Positions 8,401-58,383 of a DNA stretch of 64,000 nt are shown in pieces; position 1 is the stretch's first letter; every line of letters begins with the position of its first letter. Under the pieces are notes generated by a model. The model was not told where the DNA came from and did no database searches. It worked only from the letters and a program-made list of their open reading frames with translations. This DNA is from Minisyncoccota bacterium. GTDB taxonomy: Bacteria; Patescibacteriota; Minisyncoccia; Phycocordibacterales; WO2-35-19. Position numbers and translations under genes: made by a program. The stretch spans positions 1,956 through 65,955 of the forward strand of contig JBAYKK010000001.1 in the NCBI GenBank assembly GCA_041664625.1, read 5' to 3'.

Positions 8401-8480
8401 GTAAAATTAAGTGTTAAAAAACGGCTAAAAATAAGGATTTTTGCAAAATGGAGACAAAATGAGGTAGTATTTAGTCACTT

Positions 8481-9320
8481 ATGATTTACAATCTTTACAA
8501 ACAAAGAGGCGAAACACCGCTTGAATGCATCAGACGATTTGCCAAAAAGACTCCTGAGCTCAAAGGTCAGAAAATGACTTATCTGGGCAGGCTTGATCCG
8601 CTAGCCGAAGGAGTGTTGCTCATGGCCTCCGGTGAAGATACCAGTCAGGCTAGGCGTGAAGAATTTTTTGGATTAGATAAAGCTTACGATTTTGTCGCTA
8701 TATTTGGTTTTGCTACTGATAGTTATGATATTTTGGGCAAAATCGTCAGGGTAGAAAAATTGTCAGAACTTTTGGAAAATGATGTCAGGCGAGCGACTAT
8801 GATTTTTGAAGGCGAGCGCGAACAAGAATATCCTTTTTATTCTTCTAAAATGATCGCTAAAAGAAAAAATAAATTAAAAAATCAGAATACAAATTCTGAC
8901 TCCTCCTCCCTAAAGGGTTCCCACGGAGATCAAAATTTGCATCCCGATTTTTCTTCAGAGGACTTTCCTCAGAAGAAAGTGATCATTCACAAAATTCAGT
9001 TCCACAAACTAGAAACTTTAAATAATAAAGAACTTTTTGGGCGCTTACTCTCAGATATTTCCAAAGTGAATGGTGATTTTAGACAAAATGAGATTTTAAT
9101 TTTGTGGAATCAAATTTTATTTGGTTCAAAAAATGTTAAAGACAAAAAAGAAGCCAGTTATTTTATTGGCCGATTTAGTGCTGAAGTATCAAGTGGTACT
9201 TATATCAGGAGTTTGGTCAATGATTTGGGTAAAACTTTGGGTTGCGGAGCTACTACTCTTTCTATCAAGAGGACTCGAGTCGGGGATTTTAAGATAGAAG
9301 AGAGTTTACAATCTTTTTAA
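8481..9320 (+). CDS. tRNA pseudouridine synthase (TruB-like) with a ~35 aa low-complexity insertion.
   Basis: N-terminal 'YLGRLDPLAEGVLLMASGE' matches the TruB catalytic-Asp motif. Confidence 0.65.
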   Translation: MIYNLYKQRGETPLECIRRFAKKTPELKGQKMTYLGRLDPLAEGVLLMASGEDTSQARREEFFGLDKAYDFVAIFGFATDSYDILGKIVRVEKLSELLENDVRRATMIFEGEREQEYPFYSSKMIAKRKNKLKNQNTNSDSSSLKGSHGDQNLHPDFSSEDFPQKKVIIHKIQFHKLETLNNKELFGRLLSDISKVNGDFRQNEILILWNQILFGSKNVKDKKEASYFIGRFSAEVSSGTYIRSLVNDLGKTLGCGATTLSIKRTRVGDFKIEESLQSF

Positions 9321-9857: not shown

Positions 9858-10895
9858 CAAAATATCGCTCTCATAATTTTGGCAGTTGGGCTTTTGGTGG
9901 CGGTTTTTGCTTTGCTTAAAAGGAAACCCGACGAAAAATCAAACGATGGAGCTATGAAATTGCTTTTGGAACAAATGAATGAACTTTCCCGGACTATGGA
10001 TAGGAAAATGGGTGAGACTACTAAACAGGTTAACGAATCCATGAAGGACCAGTTTAGAGAATCTAGCAAACTCATCCGTGATGTGACAGAGGGTTTAACT
10101 AAGCTTGATGAGACCAACAAACAAGTTATTTCTTTTGCTGATCAACTCCAAAATTTGCAAGATATTTTGAAAAATCCCAAACAGCGGGGGATCCTCGGTG
10201 AGTATTACCTGGAAACACTACTCAAAAATGTTTTGGCACCAGCTCAATATCAAATGCAATATGCTTTTGTAAATGGTGAAATCGTGGATGCTGTGGTTTT
10301 TGTCAAAGATAAAGTTATACCGATTGATTCCAAATTTTCACTCGAGAATTATAATCGTTTGATTGGAGCCAAAGATCCAGCTGAAAAAGAACGACTAGAA
10401 AAACTTTTTATAAATGATTTGAAATTGCGTATTACTGAAACTTCAAAATACATTCGCCCAACCGAAGGTACAATGGATTTTGCTTTTATGTTTATCCCTC
10501 ACGAAGCTATTTATTATGATTTGCTTATAAATAAAATCGGAGCAGTGACAGAAGATACGGAAAATCTGATCCAAAGAGCGGCTGGCAAATATAAAGTGAT
10601 TATTGTCTCCCCGACCTCGTTTTTGGCATACCTCCAGACAGTTTTACAGGGTCTCAAAGCAATGCAAATAGAGGAGACAGCAAAAGATATAATAAAGAGA
10701 GTTGGGGAGCTTTCTGAGCACTTAAAAAAGTATGAAATGTATCATGGCAAACTCGGCAACTCATTGGAGACGGTGGTCAATCATTTCAATGCTTCTAGCA
10801 AAGAGTTTAAAAAGGTAGACAAAGATGTGGTGCGTATAACCGGTGTTTCTCAAGCTTTTGAAGTCCCTATTTTGGACAAGCCAGATATAGAATAA
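9855..10895 (+). CDS. rmuC: DNA recombination protein RmuC.
   Basis: N-terminal TM segment followed by a coiled coil and the RmuC core ('GEYYLETLL', 'IPIDSKF', 'FAFMFIP'). Start set to ATG 9855, downstream of the conserved leader. Confidence 0.8.
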   Translation: MQNIALIILAVGLLVAVFALLKRKPDEKSNDGAMKLLLEQMNELSRTMDRKMGETTKQVNESMKDQFRESSKLIRDVTEGLTKLDETNKQVISFADQLQNLQDILKNPKQRGILGEYYLETLLKNVLAPAQYQMQYAFVNGEIVDAVVFVKDKVIPIDSKFSLENYNRLIGAKDPAEKERLEKLFINDLKLRITETSKYIRPTEGTMDFAFMFIPHEAIYYDLLINKIGAVTEDTENLIQRAAGKYKVIIVSPTSFLAYLQTVLQGLKAMQIEETAKDIIKRVGELSEHLKKYEMYHGKLGNSLETVVNHFNASSKEFKKVDKDVVRITGVSQAFEVPILDKPDIE

Positions 10896-11086
10896 TGCCA
10901 AAGTTAAAAACCTTCTCGCTTAGCCGTCGCATAATTTCTGCCTGCCCGCCATCGCTATGCTCAAGCATTGCAGGTGGGCTGAAATTTGCTATGCTCGGCA
11001 CGTTTGCCTACGCATAGGCACGCGATAAGCTTTTTGACTTTGGCCTGTTGCAATATTTTGTCAAATCCTGTAAAGTAGTATGCGTT

Positions 11087-11527
11087 ATGCCAGTAGCCAA
11101 AAAAACCACAAAAAAAGAGGTAAAAACCACCCCAAAGGCTCCTTCTGCCCCCGCTAAAGCTATGGCGGACAAGAAGGTTGTAAAAGCTGAAAAAGTCGTC
11201 CCAAATGGCAGTTTTGCCGTTGTGGAGACTGGTGGTAAGCAATACCGAGTGGCTGTTGGCGAAACTATCAAAGTTGAAGCTATAAATGGGGAATTGAAAG
11301 AGGGAGATGCTGTAGTTTTTGATAAAGTCCTTTTGATTGACAATGGCACCGATTCTACTGACATTGGTACTCCTTATATCGCTGGTGCCAAAGTGACTGG
11401 TACTCTAGTTGAAATTGGCCGTAATGCTAAAGTCATCGTCATCAAATACAAACAAAAATCTCGTTATTTCAAGAAAAATGGCCATCGCCAACCTTTCTTT
11501 GCTGTCCGTATTGATAAAATTTCTTAA
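11087..11527 (+). CDS. rplU: 50S ribosomal protein L21 with a Lys/Ala-rich N-terminal extension.
   Basis: 'FAVVETGGKQYRVAVGETIKVE' matches the bL21 signature. Confidence 0.85.
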   Translation: MPVAKKTTKKEVKTTPKAPSAPAKAMADKKVVKAEKVVPNGSFAVVETGGKQYRVAVGETIKVEAINGELKEGDAVVFDKVLLIDNGTDSTDIGTPYIAGAKVTGTLVEIGRNAKVIVIKYKQKSRYFKKNGHRQPFFAVRIDKIS

Positions 11528-11545
11528 TTAAAAACGCAATCTCAA

Positions 11546-11664
11546 AACCTAACCCCCTTAATCCCCCTTATCTTAAGGGGGAAACCACGCAACATAAATA
11601 AACCATTGAGTAATAAACAGTAGTCACCCTCTCCTTAATATAAGGAGAGGGAAGGGGTGAGGTT
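11546..11664. repeat. ~120 bp MITE-like element. Its terminal inverted repeats are AACCTAACCCC and GGGGTGAGGTT, and it holds two internal GC hairpins (CCCCCTTA/TAAGGGGG and CCCTCTCCTT/AAGGAGAGGG).
   Basis: Read directly. Related copies lie at 12570, 54257, 55026 and 58149. Confidence 0.6.
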
Positions 11665-11681
11665 AGAAAAAAATTTGAAAA

Positions 11682-12314
11682 TTAACTAAAGAAGAAATCT
11701 TTAAATTGGAAGAGAATAGAAAATATAATAAAGACATACCAGATTATCAAAATCTGGATGTGATTTTTTGATACGAAACGGAAGAAAGATGGCCAAAAAG
11801 TGAAATGATTTTCTCTAAAATTCCAAACAGTGGTGTAAAGCAAAAGTGGCCAAGTGACAGCCCAAACTATCATACAATAAATACAAAGTGAGCCAATGCG
11901 GTAAACGCTTTCAAAGAAAAACCACATCACGAAAACCATAGCAGCAAGTGTGCCCAAATTAACCAAAAGCCAAAGTGGTTTGCGAGATCTTCCACCAGAC
12001 AAAAGCATCACACCTATCGCTAAAAGCATAGCAAAAGCTACTATTCCCAAAAGCGAATTTGGGAAGCCAAATACTTCGGCCTGCCAAGTGGTAGCCACAC
12101 TAGTGCAACTAACAAAAGGATTTATATTGCAGGGGAGCTCAACTCCCGGGTTTTTTATAAGTTCAAAAGTATCTACGGTCAAAATAAAGGAGGCCAAAAG
12201 GCCGATGATACTCCCAACTATTAATATGTAAGAAAATGATTTTTGAATTGCCATATTATTGGTGTTGTTTTTTTTAAGAAAACTTTCTGGAAAAAAGTCT
12301 GGCCTGTGCAACAA
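11682..12314 (-). CDS. Vitamin K epoxide reductase (VKOR)-family membrane thiol oxidoreductase.
   Basis: Loop Cys pair 'LPCNINPFVSC' plus the TM CxxC 'CIYC' with multiple TM helices. Confidence 0.65.
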   Translation of the reverse strand: MLHRPDFFPESFLKKNNTNNMAIQKSFSYILIVGSIIGLLASFILTVDTFELIKNPGVELPCNINPFVSCTSVATTWQAEVFGFPNSLLGIVAFAMLLAIGVMLLSGGRSRKPLWLLVNLGTLAAMVFVMWFFFESVYRIGSLCIYCMIVWAVTWPLLLYTTVWNFRENHFTFWPSFFRFVSKNHIQILIIWYVFIIFSILFQFKDFFFS

Positions 12315-12358
12315 GGAGGTCCGAGGACTTTTTAGAAGAAACGTTTTTTGAAAAAATA

Positions 12359-13027
12359 TTAACTTCTGTTCCGGAGTGCATTTTTCATCGTCTCTGGATC
12401 AGTATACTCCAATTCGGTGCCCATAGAAAGACCTTTGCCCAAGTGCGAAATTTTGATTTTATTTTTTTCTAGGATTGGTTTTAAAAATTTGGCGACGTAA
12501 TCTCCTGTGTTTTCGCCTTCTGGGTTCCAATTGACGCCCAAAATAATCTCTTTAAGTCCAGAATAATGTTCCTCTCCTCGCCCCCCTCTTAAGGTAAGAG
12601 GGGGGTTGGGGGGTGATATTCTTTTTTCAATAAAACTTTTAAGTTCTTTGATGCGGATTCTTTTTTCCGGTTCTTTTTCTAATATCGGCACTGAACCACC
12701 AAGCACAAAATAAATGCCATTGAAACTGCCGTTTTTTTCTACTGATTCCAGATCGATATCTCTTTGTACCAACATCAAGACAGATTGGTCTCTAGTCTGA
12801 TCAGAGCAAATTTTGCAAAAGTGGCCATTATTGTTTTTGGATTCAAAAAATCTATGACAATCTTCACAAATCATCACATCATTTTTTAAATCTTTTATGT
12901 TTTGAGAAAGTTCTCTCAAAGTGCTATCGGTCCGGGTCAAAAGATAGTAGACAAACCGCCGAGCTTGCCGTGGGCCAATACCTGGGAATTGGGAAAATAT
13001 TTGAATGAGTTTTTCTATTGAGTTCAT
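12359..13027 (-). CDS. recR: Recombination protein RecR carrying a ~17 aa in-frame insertion encoded by a hairpin repeat.
   Basis: HhH 'GIGPRQARR', C4 Zn finger 'CEDCHRF...CKIC' and Toprim 'IILGVNWNPEGENTGDY'. The extra segment 'SPPNPPLTLRGGRGEEH' maps to 12570-12619. Confidence 0.9.
   Translation of the reverse strand: MNSIEKLIQIFSQFPGIGPRQARRFVYYLLTRTDSTLRELSQNIKDLKNDVMICEDCHRFFESKNNNGHFCKICSDQTRDQSVLMLVQRDIDLESVEKNGSFNGIYFVLGGSVPILEKEPEKRIRIKELKSFIEKRISPPNPPLTLRGGRGEEHYSGLKEIILGVNWNPEGENTGDYVAKFLKPILEKNKIKISHLGKGLSMGTELEYTDPETMKNALRNRS
12570..12619. repeat. GC-rich hairpin repeat (CCCCCCTCTT-aaggt-AAGAGGGGGG followed by GGGGGGTGA) lying inside the recR coding sequence.
   Basis: Perfect 10 bp stem in an otherwise AT-rich gene. 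Its end resembles the family's TIR. Confidence 0.55.
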
Positions 13028-13030
13028 ATA

Positions 13031-13067
13031 TACGAAATAACGAATGGATTACGAATGGCTACGAATA
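13031..13067. repeat. Left iteron arm with four ACGAAT repeats (tACGAAataACGAATggattACGAATggctACGAATa). It is the inverted partner of 13841-13900.
   Basis: ACGAATGGCTACGAATA at 13051-13067 equals the reverse complement of 13858-13874. Confidence 0.6.
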
Positions 13068-13456
13068 AGTTCACAAAATTTTTCCTTAGCTTCATGAGCA
13101 GAGCTTACAATATAGCCCGCTTTCTTCACAAATTCAATTGACCATTTTGGGTTCCTATTTTCCTGCCAAATAATAATAAGTTTATTGCAAAAATCACCTG
13201 GGTTTTTAACATTATTGGTGTAAAAATAGCCAATTTCAATCCAAGTGGCTTCTGAGGGGGCCATTCCTGGGTTTGCTATCATATAGTCACTGGATTTTAT
13301 CCCTTTTAAATCATCGGGAAAAAATGTATCTGGGGATGTTTGATCTGAATGTATTTCCCAGTCAAAGAAGTCACAATCGTTAATATTTTGGAAAATCTTT
13401 TTCCAGTTATTATCGTGCTCATTTGATTGTCCGGCTAAATATGCTTTTATTTTCAT
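13049..13456 (-). CDS. Nucleoside 2-deoxyribosyltransferase-like (SLOG-superfamily) protein.
   Basis: 'KAYLAGQ' N-terminus and 'SEATWIEIGYFY', which are typical of the NDT-like fold. Tentative. Confidence 0.4.
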   Translation of the reverse strand: MKIKAYLAGQSNEHDNNWKKIFQNINDCDFFDWEIHSDQTSPDTFFPDDLKGIKSSDYMIANPGMAPSEATWIEIGYFYTNNVKNPGDFCNKLIIIWQENRNPKWSIEFVKKAGYIVSSAHEAKEKFCELIRSHS

Positions 13457-13460
13457 GTAA

Positions 13461-13838
13461 TTAATCTGAATCTATTTTTAGAACTCTTATTGGTCTTAAA
13501 TGTAAAGTTCTAAAATTTACCAATAATCCTAATTTTTTGTTGGTTTGTTGGAGATAGTTTTGCAGTTGGCGATAATATTCTTTGTTAATTTCTCTGACCG
13601 ATTTTAACTCTAAAATTATTTTATCTTCAACTAAAAAATCCAAAACATTTCCGGTATTCCCAATCGCAAGCTCACGATTATATAAAATATTTTTCTCTTT
13701 AAAGTGTTTCTCAATTAAATCCGCATATTGTTTTTCTCTGGCATATTCTCCTAATTCTTTATGTACTTCAAAAAGTATACCCACAATAATATAAGAAAGT
13801 TCAGGATAAATAACTTTTGGACTCACTTTTTGTTCCAT
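13461..13838 (-). CDS. GxxExxY-family PD-(D/E)xK nuclease-like protein.
   Basis: '[11 protein letters not shown]' motif and a C-terminal '[13 protein letters not shown]' core. Confidence 0.55.
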
Positions 13839-13840
13839 AT

Positions 13841-13900
13841 TTCTATTCGTTATTTCTTATATTCGTAGCCATTCGTTGTAAATTCGTTACTTCGTATTTT
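13841..13900. repeat. Right iteron arm with five copies of ATTCGT (the reverse complement of ACGAAT).
   Basis: Read directly. It is inverted relative to 13031-13067. Confidence 0.6.
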
Positions 13901-15293
13901 AAAATTCGCGGAATTCGCCTTCGGCACCACTAAACTGAGCTTTTTCAAGTGGTAAAAACATAACCTTCTTTTCATCAAAGAAGAGGTCAACTTTGCCAGT
14001 GGCACCGTTTCTGTGTTTTTCAATAAGTATTTCGGCGATGTTGGTTTTTTCGGCGTCGTTGCTACCTTTGGCTTTGTCTTCGCGGTGTATAAACATAACC
14101 ACATCGGCGTCTTGTTCGATTGAACCTGAATCACGTAAGTCGGAGAGTTTGGGTCTACCACCACGCTGTTCAATGGCACGAGAAAGCTGAGAGAGAGCAA
14201 TGACTGGTACTTCAAGTTCGCGAGCCAAATTTTTGAGGGAACGAGAAATCTCGGTGACTTGGTTAACCATCGAATCATAATTTTTGGTGGTCACCATGAG
14301 TTGTAAGTAGTCCACGATGATAAGCCCCAAACCTTTTTCATTTTTGAGTCGTCTGGCGACTGAGCGCATTTTCAAAATGTTGTTGCCAGGCTGATCATCT
14401 ATGAAAATCGGAGCTTTGGAAAGCACATCTAAAGATTGGCGTATAGAGGCGAAGTCATCTTCGCGATTAAGTCTACCGGTACGCAATTTCCAAGCATCTA
14501 CGTTGGATTGGGAAGCGAGCATACGATCTACTAATTGTTGGGAGCTCATTTCTAAAGAAAATATACCGACTGGGACATTGTGATTGACCGCGGCTTGGCG
14601 AGCGATATCTAGAGCAAGCGCGGTTTTACCAACTGATGGTCTGGCTGCCAAAATAATGAGATCGGATTTTTGGAAACCAGAAAGTTTGTCATCTAATTCT
14701 TTGAAACCGCTGGGTACTCCACGTAGACCGTCTCCAGAATTGTGCATTTTATCAAGTCTTTCCCACGCTTCGGCCAACTCATCTTTCATTTCTACAAATT
14801 TGTGGATACTGGCGATGTTGGTCACATCATATATTTTTTTCTGAGCTTGATCCAAAAGTTCTTCCAATTCTTCGGCTTCGTCATAACCCAACGAGGAAAT
14901 GAAATCGGCTGCCGCAATCAGATTGCGAGCGATATGTTTTTTTTGGATTATTTGCGCGTAGTAGGTGGCATTGGCAGCTGAAGGTACCGAATTGATAACC
15001 TCTCCCAAATAAGTGTTACCACCGATTTCTTCCAAAATGTTTTTTTCTTTTAACCGAGCTGATACGGTGAGCAAATCAGTCGGACTCCTTTTGCTGAAAA
15101 GTTCGAGCATGGTCTCAAAAATCAAACGGTGCTTTTCAGAATAAAAAGAGGCACAGTGGGCTAAATCAGTAATTTCAAACATTACTTCTGGTCTGAGCAT
15201 CACCGAACCGAGGAGAGCCTTTTCGGCTTCGGTGTTGTTGGGTGGGATTCGCAGATGAGTTTTTTTGACTTCCATGCCCACATCATATATCAA
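13899..15293 (-). CDS. dnaB: Replicative DNA helicase DnaB.
   Basis: Walker A 'ARPSVGKTALAL' plus DnaB N-terminal and C-terminal domains. Confidence 0.9.
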   Translation of the reverse strand: MIYDVGMEVKKTHLRIPPNNTEAEKALLGSVMLRPEVMFEITDLAHCASFYSEKHRLIFETMLELFSKRSPTDLLTVSARLKEKNILEEIGGNTYLGEVINSVPSAANATYYAQIIQKKHIARNLIAAADFISSLGYDEAEELEELLDQAQKKIYDVTNIASIHKFVEMKDELAEAWERLDKMHNSGDGLRGVPSGFKELDDKLSGFQKSDLIILAARPSVGKTALALDIARQAAVNHNVPVGIFSLEMSSQQLVDRMLASQSNVDAWKLRTGRLNREDDFASIRQSLDVLSKAPIFIDDQPGNNILKMRSVARRLKNEKGLGLIIVDYLQLMVTTKNYDSMVNQVTEISRSLKNLARELEVPVIALSQLSRAIEQRGGRPKLSDLRDSGSIEQDADVVMFIHREDKAKGSNDAEKTNIAEILIEKHRNGATGKVDLFFDEKKVMFLPLEKAQFSGAEGEFREF

Positions 15294-48256: not shown

Positions 48257-48344
48257 GTGAGGTCTGCCCATCAGGGCCAGTCTGCGATAACATCAATGGC
48301 TGGCTCTTTCTTTTTGTTTAATTCACATTTTTTAAATACAAAAT

Positions 48345-48378
48345 AGCCGCAGGGGTGCGTGGAGCGCCCCTGCGGCTG
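48345..48378 (-). terminator. Hairpin with an 11 bp stem AGCCGCAGGGG...CCCCTGCGGCT downstream of the PEP-CTERM gene.
   Basis: Read directly. Confidence 0.5.
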
Positions 48379-48388
48379 TTGTGGAGCG

Positions 48389-49072
48389 TTAGCTCCTACT
48401 GTTGCGTTGACGACGGGCGATAAGCCCGACGAGAAAAAGTCCGAGAGTCGCCGTGCCGTAGGTGGCCGGTTCGGGCACCTGACTGCCCGTGACCTGCAGC
48501 TCACTGGCGATCCCGTTGGAGTCGCCAAAGAGCTGGAATGAAGTTATTTTCAGAACGTTCGTTCCAGACTGGAACCATGCCGGGTTCAGGGAACCCGAGA
48601 ACATGGTGCTGGAAACGCATCCTGGCGTCCCCAACACGCAGTGTTCAGCCGGGTTGGTGTCCGTCGGTGAGACGGCCAGTTGCCCGTTCAGGGTGGCCGA
48701 AGCGGTGTCGTCGGCCAGAAGCTTCAATGTTGCCGATGTGACCATGAAGCCAGCCGGCAGAGTGAAGGTTTGGGTGAACTCCTGCACGGTCCCGTTGGGG
48801 ACCTGGAAGTATTCCGCGTTGTGAGCACCAGACTGCCAATGGGAGATCCACGGCACTCCGGGCATCGAATACCACGCCGAGTTGGCCGGAATGGCCAGAA
48901 CCGAACCGTCGCCCTTGTCGACCCAGATTGAGTCATCGGCAGTGTTTGTGGCCGAAGAATGCGACTGGAAAGTCAGGGTAGTGACGGGTGTCGCGCCGGC
49001 CGTGATGGCCAACACGAAAATCAAAAAAGCTGCCGTAAGGTAGCCGTTGTACTTCACTTCTTTTTCCTCCAA
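48389..49072 (-). CDS. Secreted PEP-CTERM sorting-domain protein. GC content is very high (~55-60%).
   Basis: N-terminal signal peptide. C-terminus reads 'VPEPATYGTATLGLFLVGLIARRQRNSRS' (PEP + TM helix + Arg cluster). Confidence 0.7.
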   Translation of the reverse strand: MEEKEVKYNGYLTAAFLIFVLAITAGATPVTTLTFQSHSSATNTADDSIWVDKGDGSVLAIPANSAWYSMPGVPWISHWQSGAHNAEYFQVPNGTVQEFTQTFTLPAGFMVTSATLKLLADDTASATLNGQLAVSPTDTNPAEHCVLGTPGCVSSTMFSGSLNPAWFQSGTNVLKITSFQLFGDSNGIASELQVTGSQVPEPATYGTATLGLFLVGLIARRQRNSRS

Positions 49073-54217: not shown

Positions 54218-54311
54218 AAAATTATTGTATCATATAGCTACCTCATTTTGAAATTACTACCTCACCCCTAACCCCTCCCCTTGCAAAGGGGAGGGGAAAG
54301 AGACAAAAACA

Positions 54312-54665
54312 ATGTCAAAAATTCATAATAATAAAATTTTCATAGAAAGAAGAGTAGAATTACGAAAGAATCAAACTCCGACAGAAGAAAAATTGTGGTT
54401 CTTTCTTCGAGGTAATAAACTTAACGGAGTAAAATTTAAAAGACAGCATAGTATAGGAGGTTATATTCCGGATTTTTATTGCGCCAAAAAGAAATTGATT
54501 ATTGAACTTGATGGAGAAATACATAACACAACTGAAGCTCGAGAATATGACGAAGTAAGAGATAAGTTTTTTAAGGAACTTGGATATACAACACTCAGAT
54601 TTTTGAATAGGGAAATAGAGAATGATATTGATGAGGTTTTGGACAAAATATCAAAATTTTTGTAA
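54312..54665 (+). CDS. DUF559 (Vsr/PD-(D/E)xK-like) endonuclease-domain protein.
   Basis: 'RKNQTPTEEKLW..LR......KFKRQHSIGGYIPDFYC..KKLIIELDGEIH' with a C-terminal 'LRFLNREI'. Confidence 0.75.
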   Translation: MSKIHNNKIFIERRVELRKNQTPTEEKLWFFLRGNKLNGVKFKRQHSIGGYIPDFYCAKKKLIIELDGEIHNTTEAREYDEVRDKFFKELGYTTLRFLNREIENDIDEVLDKISKFL

Positions 54666-54928: not shown

Positions 54929-55101
54929 ACTCAATCTCCTCTGTCTTAATTATACACCCATTCAATATATATGTCAAGCAAGAAAGAGTAAAAATGTTTT
55001 AAAATAAGGAGATTTTGGTATTTAGCCCCTCCACTTTGCAAGGGGAGGGGCAATCCGACGCAAGTCGGATGGGGTGAGGTAGTTTTTGAAGTGGGGGAAA
55101 A

Positions 55102-57872: not shown

Positions 57873-58109
57873 TTATTCAATAGTACCGGTCATTTTGCCC
57901 ATCTTGATAAGCTCGTGGATTTTGGCTTTTTCGCCAAGTCTTTTTAAAGTTTTTTTCTTGGTAACGTATTCTGAAAGTTTCCTGACACTGTATCTTCGGC
58001 CACGGAGACGCGATAAAATACCAGAGCCTTGTACTCTTTTGGTAAACTTCCTTATAAGTCCCAAATTGTTATCTTTTTCGCCTTTGGTTATTTCTACGTT
58101 TATTGCCAT
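57873..58109 (-). CDS. rpsU: 30S ribosomal protein S21.
   Basis: ~79 aa basic protein ('LIRKFTKRVQGSGILSRLRGRRY'). Start set at the internal Met. Confidence 0.55.
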   Translation of the reverse strand: MAINVEITKGEKDNNLGLIRKFTKRVQGSGILSRLRGRRYSVRKLSEYVTKKKTLKRLGEKAKIHELIKMGKMTGTIE

Positions 58110-58148
58110 ATGCAATATCCTAACATACCTTATAATTTTGTGCAAAAG

Positions 58149-58216
58149 AACCTCACCCCTAACCCCTCTCCTAGATGCAGGAGAGGGGAAAATGTCAAAG
58201 GTGCCCTTTGACATTT
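58149..58216. repeat. Repeat-family copy (AACCTCACCCCT + CCCCTCTCCT-agatgc-AGGAGAGGGG) followed by a perfect 12 bp hairpin AAATGTCAAAGG-tgc-CCTTTGACATTT.
   Basis: Read directly. Lies upstream of rpsU. Confidence 0.55.
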
Positions 58217-58383
58217 GGAGATGTGTTGTAATTTTTCTCTGATCATCCCACATCTGGCCGATCGGCCAAATAGGGGGTGAAAACAGTTAAGGGAGATTTG
58301 TTTTTTTAATATTTAAAAAAAGAAAGCCCTGCACGATGGCGCGGGGCCAATCTTGCGGGGCTGGGGGAGGAAGAACAGATGTT

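Follow-up and report, generated by a model that had tools for sequence, protein, structure and literature searches.

Why does a bacterial recombination gene carry, within its coding sequence, a perfect GC-rich hairpin that most of its orthologues lack? The gene is recR, encoded on the minus strand of a 64-kb stretch of contig JBAYKK010000001.1 from a Minisyncoccota bacterium (this whole stretch of 64,000 nucleotides is referred to here as the window), and the element in question is a GC-rich, 50-base hairpin that carries a G-rich tail. The explanation that best accounts for the data, and that we hold to be very probably correct, is that a copy of a repeat of the BoxC/PIT/TM class (PIT, potential intrastrand triplex; TM, triplex motif) was inserted into recR, in frame, and is read through as a loop. 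Repeats of this class have been known, though little understood, for about thirty years. A first-pass annotation of the window had proposed that a repeat-family element sits in frame in recR and is tolerated as a loop, and this proposal holds: most relatives and the solved RecR structure 3vdp lack the segment, further copies are found between genes, and the segment is modelled as coil with predicted local distance difference test (pLDDT) values below 50.

Position of the insert in RecR

The recR product matches the Pfam families RecR_HhH, Toprim_4 and RecR_C, and all parts of the protein are present, namely the HhH domain, the Cys4 zinc finger, the Toprim domain and the C-terminal motif. The cysteines C54, C57, C71 and C74 are invariant in the alignment. 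A search of the PDB with RecR returned RecR proteins, with 3vdp as the best match (E 1.4e-29). The insert was delimited by a protein alignment with 46 relatives, combined with a codon-level comparison with the empty alleles of loci L001, L003, L085 and L087. It comprises 57 nt, in the coding-strand context I-SPPNPPLTLRGGRGEEHYS-G (residues 138–156). The empty alleles read AAA GAG at the DNA level where recR of the window has 19 codons, and the net gain is 51 nt. The identical 222-residue RecR is recorded on several independently assembled contigs, and the insert is therefore not an assembly artefact.

In the alignment with 3vdp, RecR of the window has about 20 additional residues after the helix ...IRIKEL... 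and before the strand ...KEVIL..., and the insert site corresponds to the turn that leads from a helix into the following strand of the Toprim domain. The first-pass annotation had taken the segments FVLGG and EIILGVNW to be contiguous elsewhere. This is not the case, since about 25 residues (SVPILEKEPEKRIRIKELKSFIEKRI) lie between FVLGG and the insertion point, and the equivalent stretch is also present in 3vdp. The loop itself is predicted by an AlphaFold2 model calculated with a 47-sequence alignment (mean pLDDT 68), in which the insert appears as a low-confidence coil between a helix and a strand. Residues 138–159 are coil, with pLDDT values below 50 for residues 140–154, preceded by a helix (residues 126–137) and followed by a strand (residues 160–164). 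The best structural matches of the model are all RecR. The insert would be read through as a floppy 19-residue loop, and is probably both translated and harmless. The designation of recR as essential does not apply to model bacteria, in which the gene is dispensable.

Filled and empty alleles among relatives

The 120 closest RecR homologues belong to Zambryskibacteria and other Patescibacteria, and have a base length of 203–205 residues, with many longer forms. Most relatives at 70–87% RecR identity have no insert in the alignment, and the segment is also missing from 3vdp, the solved RecR used therein. A homologous insert is found at the same position in eight relatives, in the form SPPNPPLNLR[GE]G... 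(P0003 and P0007) or THPNPSLKLREGQGESY (P0001, P0004, P0005, P0009, P0017 and L002). At the DNA level, six recR alleles carry the triplex-type insert, which occurs in two subtypes (I and II). The closest pair of a filled and an empty allele, L164 and L165, respectively, displays 89% nucleotide identity. By sequence comparison, the recR insert is derived relative to most orthologues. Net insert lengths of 42, 48 and 51 nt were found in nine alleles, always multiples of three and with zero stop codons.

The insert site (...FIEKKIK^EGLKEIIL...) is one of three length hot spots in the RecR alignment. Other relatives have unrelated short inserts at this site (NPPSQNASAR, SPTSHEASRGQNN, NPTSQSFAG and RQAQGEKEK). 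The two of these types with DNA (NPPSQ[ND]A[ST]AR and LRQAQ...) showed no significant folding and did not recur in other parts of the loci, and their interpretation as repeats is therefore unsupported. The second hot spot of the clade is the zinc-finger loop, with inserts such as RRSFSEGG and HKNKNYNDGHCK, and the third follows the motif KPxxE (QAQSPQR, NTQSTSAKLRR and IQSSSDKAAAD).

Architecture of the recR copy

The plus strand of the recR copy reads CCCCCCTCTTA-agg-TAAGAGGGGGG-tt-GGGGGGTGATA (positions 12581–12618; Table 1). The perfect GC stem inside recR described in the first-pass annotation is present, with 11 bp rather than 10, and is accompanied by loops of 3 and 2 nt. The 25-nt palindrome has one exact occurrence in the window versus 0.00 expected (100 shuffles). 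The third strand is the mirror of the purine arm, and 10 of its 11 positions correspond to allowed purine-motif triads (G.G-C, T.A-T and A.A-T). The tail (GGGGGGTGA), which had been likened to a terminal inverted repeat (TIR), is in fact this third strand. The degenerate second tail at the 3' part of the insert is better kept in type II alleles (GGGGAGAGTTA), with 6 of 9 triads in the window copy versus 9 of 11 in L164 and L169. The computed folding energy of the window hairpin is −12.4 kcal/mol (z = −2.0), and z reaches −3.7 in L002 and L162.

A TM element has, on a single strand, three triplex-forming blocks in succession, namely a hairpin and a third block that obeys triad rules, with a stem of 6–15 nt containing at most one mismatch and loops of 1–6 nt (PMC4666352). 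The recR copy agrees with this definition (ITxF, Holder 2015) in its triads, its stem and both of its loops. The E. coli representative, BoxC/PIT/TMECO, has the form CCCTCTCCC-N3-6-GGGAGAGGG-TTA-GGGTGAGGG and is a potential intrastrand triplex (Holder 2015, PMC4666352), whose last block mirrors the purine arm and can bind it via G.G-C, A.A-T and T.A-T triads (PMC4666352). A generalised pattern in a shifted register (CCCCTCTCC / GGAGAGGGG / GGGGTGAGG) finds two copies in the window versus 0 expected. On these sequence grounds, we assign the recR element with considerable confidence to the BoxC/PIT/TM-type potential intrastrand triplex motifs.

Table 1. Positions of recR, its insert and the members of the repeat family in the window.
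Feature	Position	Strand	Basis or detail
recR	12359–13027	minus	ORF of 222 aa, stop included, intact
Inserted segment	12560–12616	minus	19 codons S138–S156, SPPNPPLTLRGGRGEEHYS, replacing 2 codons K-E of the 205-aa form
C-rich (pyrimidine) hairpin arm CCCCCCTCTTA	12581–12591	+	sequence
Loop 1, AGG	12592–12594	+	sequence
Purine hairpin arm TAAGAGGGGGG	12595–12605	+	sequence
Loop 2 (TT), then G-rich third strand GGGGGGTGATA at 12608–12618	12606–12618	+	triad count, Holder 2015 architecture
3' insert part on coding strand, CGAGGAGAGGAACATTATTCT	12560–12580	minus	degenerate second, inverted third-strand-like tail
Intergenic copy, CCCCTCTCCT-gcatct-AGGAGAGGGG-tta-GGGGTGAGGT	58150–58190	minus	R1 72 bits (in seed); 10/10 triads
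Intergenic copy between thioredoxin-reductase-like and DUF559 genes	54259–54298	minus	R1 50.3 bits, E 6e-10, outside seed
Intergenic copy downstream of VKOR, between convergent genes	11624–11663	+	R1 34.5 bits, E 2.6e-6; 10/11 triads
Divergent weaker copy downstream of rplU	11547–11584	+ (model orientation, C-rich strand)	R1 20 bits, E 0.0055
Composite weak copy downstream of ftsZ, membership uncertain: GCCCCTCC...GGAGGGGC, small hairpin, GGGGTGAGGTA	55023–55080	+	R1 E ~1

Nucleotide constraint and covariation

Within a subtype, head and hairpin are 90–97% identical, versus 51–60% at the flanking third codon positions of identical amino acids in the same alleles. Types I and II differ at two positions, and do so on all three strands: the stem CCCCCCTCTTA/TAAGAGGGGGG of type I is CCCCTCCCTTA/TAAGGGAGGGG in type II, and the third strand GGGGGGTGATA is GGGGTGGGTTA, each fitting its own arm. 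The stem change turns P-P-L-T-L-R-G-G into P-S-L-K-L-R-E-G with the pairing kept. In 32 distinct members of the family, 98.1% of the stem cells are paired, double changes are seen at 5 of 10 pairs and 2 of 320 cells are G.U; the imperfect stems in recR have two non-wobble mismatches and one wobble. Watson-Crick covariation is seen in the stem, and changes in the third strand accompany those of its own arm. Because the compensatory changes in the stem alter the amino acids, it is the nucleotide palindrome, and not the peptide, that is conserved according to this comparison.

An ancestral or functionally selected RecR linker, as opposed to an insertion, would fit the homologous segment at the same position in eight relatives. 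We consider this next to untenable. Neither 3vdp nor most relatives have the segment, and those without it include the nearest (P0006, P0008 and L165); the amino acids change wherever both arms change, the model predicts a disordered loop, and the same DNA family is found in non-coding DNA. The first-pass annotation had named conservation of the segment at the protein level in orthologues from close relatives as the sign of such a linker. The alignment of orthologues sustains the insertion view taken there: most relatives have no segment, and eight carry a homologous one. The resemblance to a linker is only superficial, because the palindrome and not the peptide is conserved.

A second alternative is a selected mRNA structure in recR, either a hairpin or a pyrimidine-type RNA triple helix, that paces translation or mRNA stability. 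It would account for a hairpin conserved well beyond the flanking synonymous sites, and for the C-rich version on the sense strand in six of six recR alleles; pyrimidine-type intrastrand triplexes can form in RNA (PMC4666352, introduction). This explanation is nevertheless improbable, as the element is also intergenic and in both orientations, including between convergent genes, G.U pairs are nearly absent, and the imperfect recR stems have more non-wobble mismatches than wobbles. Moreover, truB of L005 has the opposite orientation in the sense strand, and most relatives manage without the element. For a DNA repeat copy carried by recR, as we propose, the constraint would act on DNA structure rather than on protein or mRNA.

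The fit of the third strand was evaluated in 26 copies picked without reference to triad fit. Valid triads average 9.38 of 10 with the own flank versus 8.36 ± 0.14 with swapped flanks (0 of 20,000 shuffles), a difference that gives no clean probability because the copies are related. On one further reading, which we put forward tentatively and would sooner expect to fail than to hold, the tracking of its own arm by the third strand, inside recR too, together with a mirror that cannot be copied from a template, would be comparative evidence that living cells maintain the triplex-forming capacity itself, as opposed to a mere hairpin or a word bound by a protein. The recurrence at one recR codon would then reflect homing guided by structure or microhomology. 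If true, in-frame copies in housekeeping genes would represent natural reporters for triplex in vivo. In coding copies, the reading frame and the nucleic-acid structure both constrain the same bases, so that covariation of stem and third strand can be used as a test of conserved triplex geometry.

A dispersed repeat family in the window and its relatives

Family members were searched with the motif adjoining the stem, CCCCAACCCC, with one mismatch allowed. The search gave copies of the form (A)ACCTCACCCC-[TC]A[AG]-CCCCTCTCCT-loop-AGGAGAGGGG, in the window and in close relatives. When all copies were aligned with MAFFT, their differing loop lengths threw the alignments out of register, and the covariance model R1 was therefore seeded from nine intergenic copies that share a 6-nt loop, with no recR copy included. 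R1 recovers the recR insert (12619–12579) over all 41 model positions with 27.7 bits and an E-value of ~1e-4 (filters off), and also gives a weak match on the plus strand at 12570–12607 (17.8 bits, E 0.018), which speaks for the degenerate second tail. Across 750 kb, the model yielded 33 matches to 28 distinct elements, which are confined to the window and to 15 loci with a RecR at least 65% identical to that of the window (~267 kb); no match was found in ~483 kb of more distant Paceibacteria loci. Five matches with E < 0.01 are located in the 64-kb window (Table 1).

Most family copies are intergenic, in either orientation, and are placed between convergent genes or at a distance of 10–45 nt from a start codon. 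Where dnaB meets recR, the empty sites (L007, L083 and L090) consist of TAA, 0–3 nt and ATG, and the filled sites (L003 and L008) have the complete motif straight after the dnaB stop, which fits insertion of the element as a whole. Copies are found just upstream of recR in L001, L089, L091 and L162. Inverted doublets with the heads outward are present in L006/L082, L086 and the IMG/VR locus L203. Near-identical copies, with identical loops (gcatct) too, occupy non-orthologous sites in different species. The 17-mer head CTCACCCCTAACCCCTC is found in 49 IMG/VR stretches with a GC content from 0.30 to 0.70, and is followed by the CCCCTCTCC...GGAGAGGGG hairpin in 55 of 60 IMG/VR occurrences. Similar sequences are located on plasmids of cyanobacteria, Cupriavidus, Xanthomonas, Hymenobacter and Capnocytophaga.

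The existence of filled and empty sites, the inverted doublets with outward heads and the near-identical copies at non-orthologous sites would also suit a miniature transposable element with inverted repeats (MITE) or an element of the repetitive extragenic palindromic (REP)/REPIN type, driven by a transposase, with the G-rich tail as TIR or recognition head. We regard this as unlikely. Instead of being a fixed recognition sequence, the head changes together with its own stem, and it mirrors the arm and is not inverted. No consistent target-site duplication was found on comparing filled and empty sites. No transposase is present among the genes called in the window or the loci, and no Y1 transposase or RAYT gene among the genes seen, which represent a fraction of each genome (64 kb in the case of the source). 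In E. coli, TMECO was found to have no link to transposons or other mobile elements (Holder 2015, PMC4666352).

The head was also considered as a promoter −10 box, a Shine-Dalgarno sequence or a terminator. These roles were rejected given the variable distance to the start codon (12–45 nt), the lack of a T-run, and the copies in both orientations and between convergent genes; TMECO has no promoter or terminator activity either (PMC4666352). An Rfam scan of the window at gathering thresholds returned three tRNAs only, and E-value scans at the intergenic copies and at the IMG/VR array returned only chance matches to microRNA-like hairpins. This array lies in L203 at 10380–11900 (IMG/VR UViG_3300028586_000777), a viral contig, and consists of five tandem units of ~335 bp beside phage-like genes. 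Each unit contains an inverted doublet of the triplex-type motif, with the heads outward and a spacer of ~55 nt, and has no convincing ORF.

Copies in other protein-coding genes

Family copies are also found in truB of two relatives, an in-frame composite copy in L165 (KKTSHHALPLHLGEGQHNEVVRDEVKK) and a reversed copy in L005 (GSPPLVVRRGLGGV). Three different combinations of frame and orientation occur across recR and truB. The consensus leaves two of its three frames open on each strand, and the peptides from the copies differ by frame and orientation (SPPNPPLTLRGG, TSHHALPLHLGEG and SPPLVVRRGLGG). The use of different frames in different genes argues against a function of the peptide. The question raised in the first-pass annotation, whether other copies preserve reading frames, is answered in the affirmative by the in-frame copies in truB and by the recR inserts, all of them multiples of three and stop-free. 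Four open-frame peptides of the element gave no match at E ≤ 10 in a collection of 5.8 billion proteins, the segments being too short. On plasmid pSTA7437.01 of Stanieria cyanosphaera PCC 7437 (L220, 290–345), the motif TACCTCTCCCCCAACCCCTCTCCTataAGGAGAGGGG lies inside an annotated type I-D cas10d, and in-frame copies are therefore not confined to Patescibacteria. Such inserts account for many of the short "loops" rich in Pro and Gly, and of the spurious small ORFs (PNPSP..., GEGLGVR...), that annotations contain.

The truB gene of the window (8475–9317, plus strand) belongs to a set (window, L001, L003, L005, L009 and L165) with two variable loops. The first loop, after YSSKMIAK, contains the triplex-type copy in L165 and almost nothing in L003. 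In L001 and L005, it contains another GC hairpin of 13 bp (GAGGGTGACCCTT...AAGGGTCACCCTC), which in L005 is also found upstream of truB, and whose perfect pairing is kept through the double change GGT/CAC to GAT/CAT. In the window, the first loop is a low-complexity stretch of ~35 residues (KNKLKNQNTNSDSSSLKGSHGDQNLHPDFSSEDFPQ).

Arrival of the insert and points against the proposed explanation

According to our proposal, a copy of a short dispersed BoxC/PIT/TM repeat would have landed in the turn between helix and β-strand of the Toprim domain of RecR, with the order pyrimidine arm, 3-nt loop, purine arm, 2-nt loop and mirrored G-rich third segment on the G-rich strand. The survivors would be in-frame, stop-free versions only, which the ribosome would read through into a disordered, Pro/Gly-rich loop that RecR would not need. 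The structure under constraint would be a hairpin or triplex in single-stranded DNA. Copies would probably arrive whole, by a copy-and-paste or recombination route, and would later be lost by deletion; TMECO marks unstable, deletion-prone loci (PMC4666352).

Several observations weigh against this explanation. A neighbour-joining tree of 119 RecRs, in which resolution is weak, mixes filled with empty alleles and does not distinguish a single origin followed by losses from repeated gains at one codon; either may apply. The insert displaces two native codons and is not a clean insertion, and 7–9 nt of its loop and 3' arm are also present in the nearest empty allele, as native sequence. Neither a transposase nor a target-site duplication nor any other sign of mobilisation was found in the window and loci, and none has been found for the repeat class in the literature (PMC4666352). 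The strict TMECO pattern, 5'-CCCTCNCCC N3-6 GGGNGAGGG N3 GGGNGAGGG-3' (PMC4666352), has 0 matches in the window. Finally, single strands of TMECO form a triplex in vitro, and Holder et al. failed to detect the triplex in vivo (PMC4666352).

The shared sequence was further analyzed by subtype. Empty L165 shares the stretch AAATTAAGG (9 nt, P ~0.0016) with the type II insert, and empty L001 shares AAGAGGG (7 nt, P ~0.03) with the type I insert, versus a run of only 5 nt when each empty allele is compared with the other subtype; the comparison is post hoc and covers two filled/empty pairs. The empty alleles L165 and L168 encode K-E-N with identical DNA, and their nearest neighbours in the tree are type II alleles. 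The sharing of 7–9 nt may correspond to microhomology-guided integration or to deletion remnants.

The same stretches, with their shorter runs in the cross comparisons, could instead be taken as a sign that the hairpin arose locally, by template switching at the purine-rich K-E-G coding stretch. Such an origin is very improbable, quite apart from the post hoc nature of the two comparisons. The mirror repeat formed by the third strand and the purine arm is impossible to obtain by template copying, identical gcatct loops recur at non-orthologous sites, and the empty dnaB|recR junctions have no purine tract, whereas the filled ones have the whole motif. The narrower idea that the 3' arm derives from the target site is contradicted at the same junction, and was kept only as unexplained microhomology. 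Insertion of a repeat copy thus stays the preferred explanation.

Surroundings of recR and of the other copies

A 31-nt AT-rich inverted repeat (77% complementary, with the arms 26 nt apart) is located at 12269–12356, between the recR stop and VKOR, a gene on the same strand, and may constitute a terminator or a regulatory hairpin. On the other side of recR, the gap towards dnaB (13899–15293) contains two small genes within 13049–13838 on the minus strand, a PDDEXK_3 gene (PD-(D/E)XK; 13461–13838) and a weak Nuc_deoxyrib_tr-like ORF (13049–13456). In several relatives, this gap is either closed, with the dnaB stop directly against the recR ATG, or taken up by a triplex-type repeat. The PDDEXK_3 protein of the window is 94% identical to the copy of L165/L166, at a nucleotide identity of ~72–79% among the recR alleles, which suggests that the PDDEXK_3 gene spread recently.

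The DUF559 gene at 54312–54665 (117 residues, Vsr-like endonuclease fold) has a family copy upstream (54259–54298) and the composite, inverted weak copy downstream (55023–55080). Its product was considered as a candidate nuclease for mobilising the repeat. No DUF559 homologue was found in the other loci examined, and any link to the repeat would be based on the window alone. A small unannotated ORF (57873–58253, minus strand) is located beside the copy at 58150–58190; its internal ATG at 58109 would give a K/R-rich product of 78 residues. The product of 57873–58109 had been taken by eye for ribosomal protein S21, an identification that Pfam, with no match, does not confirm. In addition, a GC-rich island at 48271–49072, with 40-nt windows of up to 75% GC in a window of 40% GC, contains an 11-bp GC hairpin (48345–48377) and an ORF of 227 residues (48389–49072, minus strand). 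At its C-terminus, this ORF has a match to the PEP-CTERM sorting motif whose score, 20.7 bits, equals the Pfam cut-off. The island may have been acquired horizontally.

Comparison with known repeat systems

Short GC hairpins in AT-rich, compact genomes are known from mitochondria, as yeast GC clusters, byps, fungal double-hairpin elements and the repetitive hairpin-forming elements of sponges (PMC2800124), and resemble the local element in this respect. By contrast, they are organellar, and byps break the frame and are skipped by the ribosome, whereas the frame is kept in every local allele. Mitochondrial GC hairpins sometimes lie inside coding sequences. To our knowledge, no triplex-type third block has been described for them.

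REP/REPIN elements, which are mobilised by RAYT transposases, are similar in size (~35–40 nt) and in having a GC-rich hairpin preceded by a conserved head, a high copy number, inverted doublets and a mostly extragenic location. In REP elements, RAYT recognises a fixed tetranucleotide head, GT[AG]G, whereas the local head has 9–11 nt, is not GTAG and covaries with the stem, and some of the local copies are intragenic.

Rickettsia palindromic elements (RPE; Ogata et al. 2000, reviewed in PMC10969869 and PMC3184786) are dispersed palindromic repeats found in frame in unrelated housekeeping genes, translated and compatible with the protein fold, with intergenic copies too. The local element resembles them in these properties, as judged here by sequence and model, with in-frame copies in recR and truB and a predicted loop. 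RPE are, however, ~100–150 bp long with a family-specific conserved peptide, whereas the local element has ~40–57 bp (insert 42–57 nt) and no conserved peptide. It is also GC-rich in an AT-rich genome, occurs in at least three frames or orientations and has a triplex-type mirror block. On size and on the conserved peptide, the element falls outside the RPE family, to which it is similar in behaviour. With the in-frame copies in recR and truB of tiny Patescibacteria genomes, the "selfish DNA in protein-coding genes" of Rickettsia has a counterpart in a further phylum and with a further repeat class.

The closest likeness is to the BoxC/PIT/TM repeats (Bachellier BoxC; Hoyne and Maher 2000; Holder 2015). 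Both have a C-rich arm, a purine arm and a mirrored G-rich third block, separated by loops of 3–6 and 2–3 nt, the second of which is often TTA (local form CCCCTCTCCT..AGGAGAGGGG-TTA-GGGGTGAGGT), and both third blocks contain the same internal TGA (GGGTGAGGG versus the local GGGGTGAGG). Both are found many times per genome, in either orientation, chiefly upstream of genes and also as inverted doublets (here in L006/L082 and L086), and the patchy presence between close relatives here fits the reported instability. The local register is 4-1-1-1-2 as opposed to 3-1-1-1-3 in TMECO, a shift of one G, and the host belongs to the Patescibacteria (Zambryskibacteria-like, 40% GC). TMECO in E. coli MG1655 is "always located intergenically" (PMC4666352), whereas several local copies lie in frame inside protein genes, in recR, in truB (L165 and L005) and, in Stanieria, in the annotated cas10d. 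New, therefore, is the presence of BoxC/PIT/TM repeats in Patescibacteria, in frame within housekeeping genes, a context undescribed in the literature searched.

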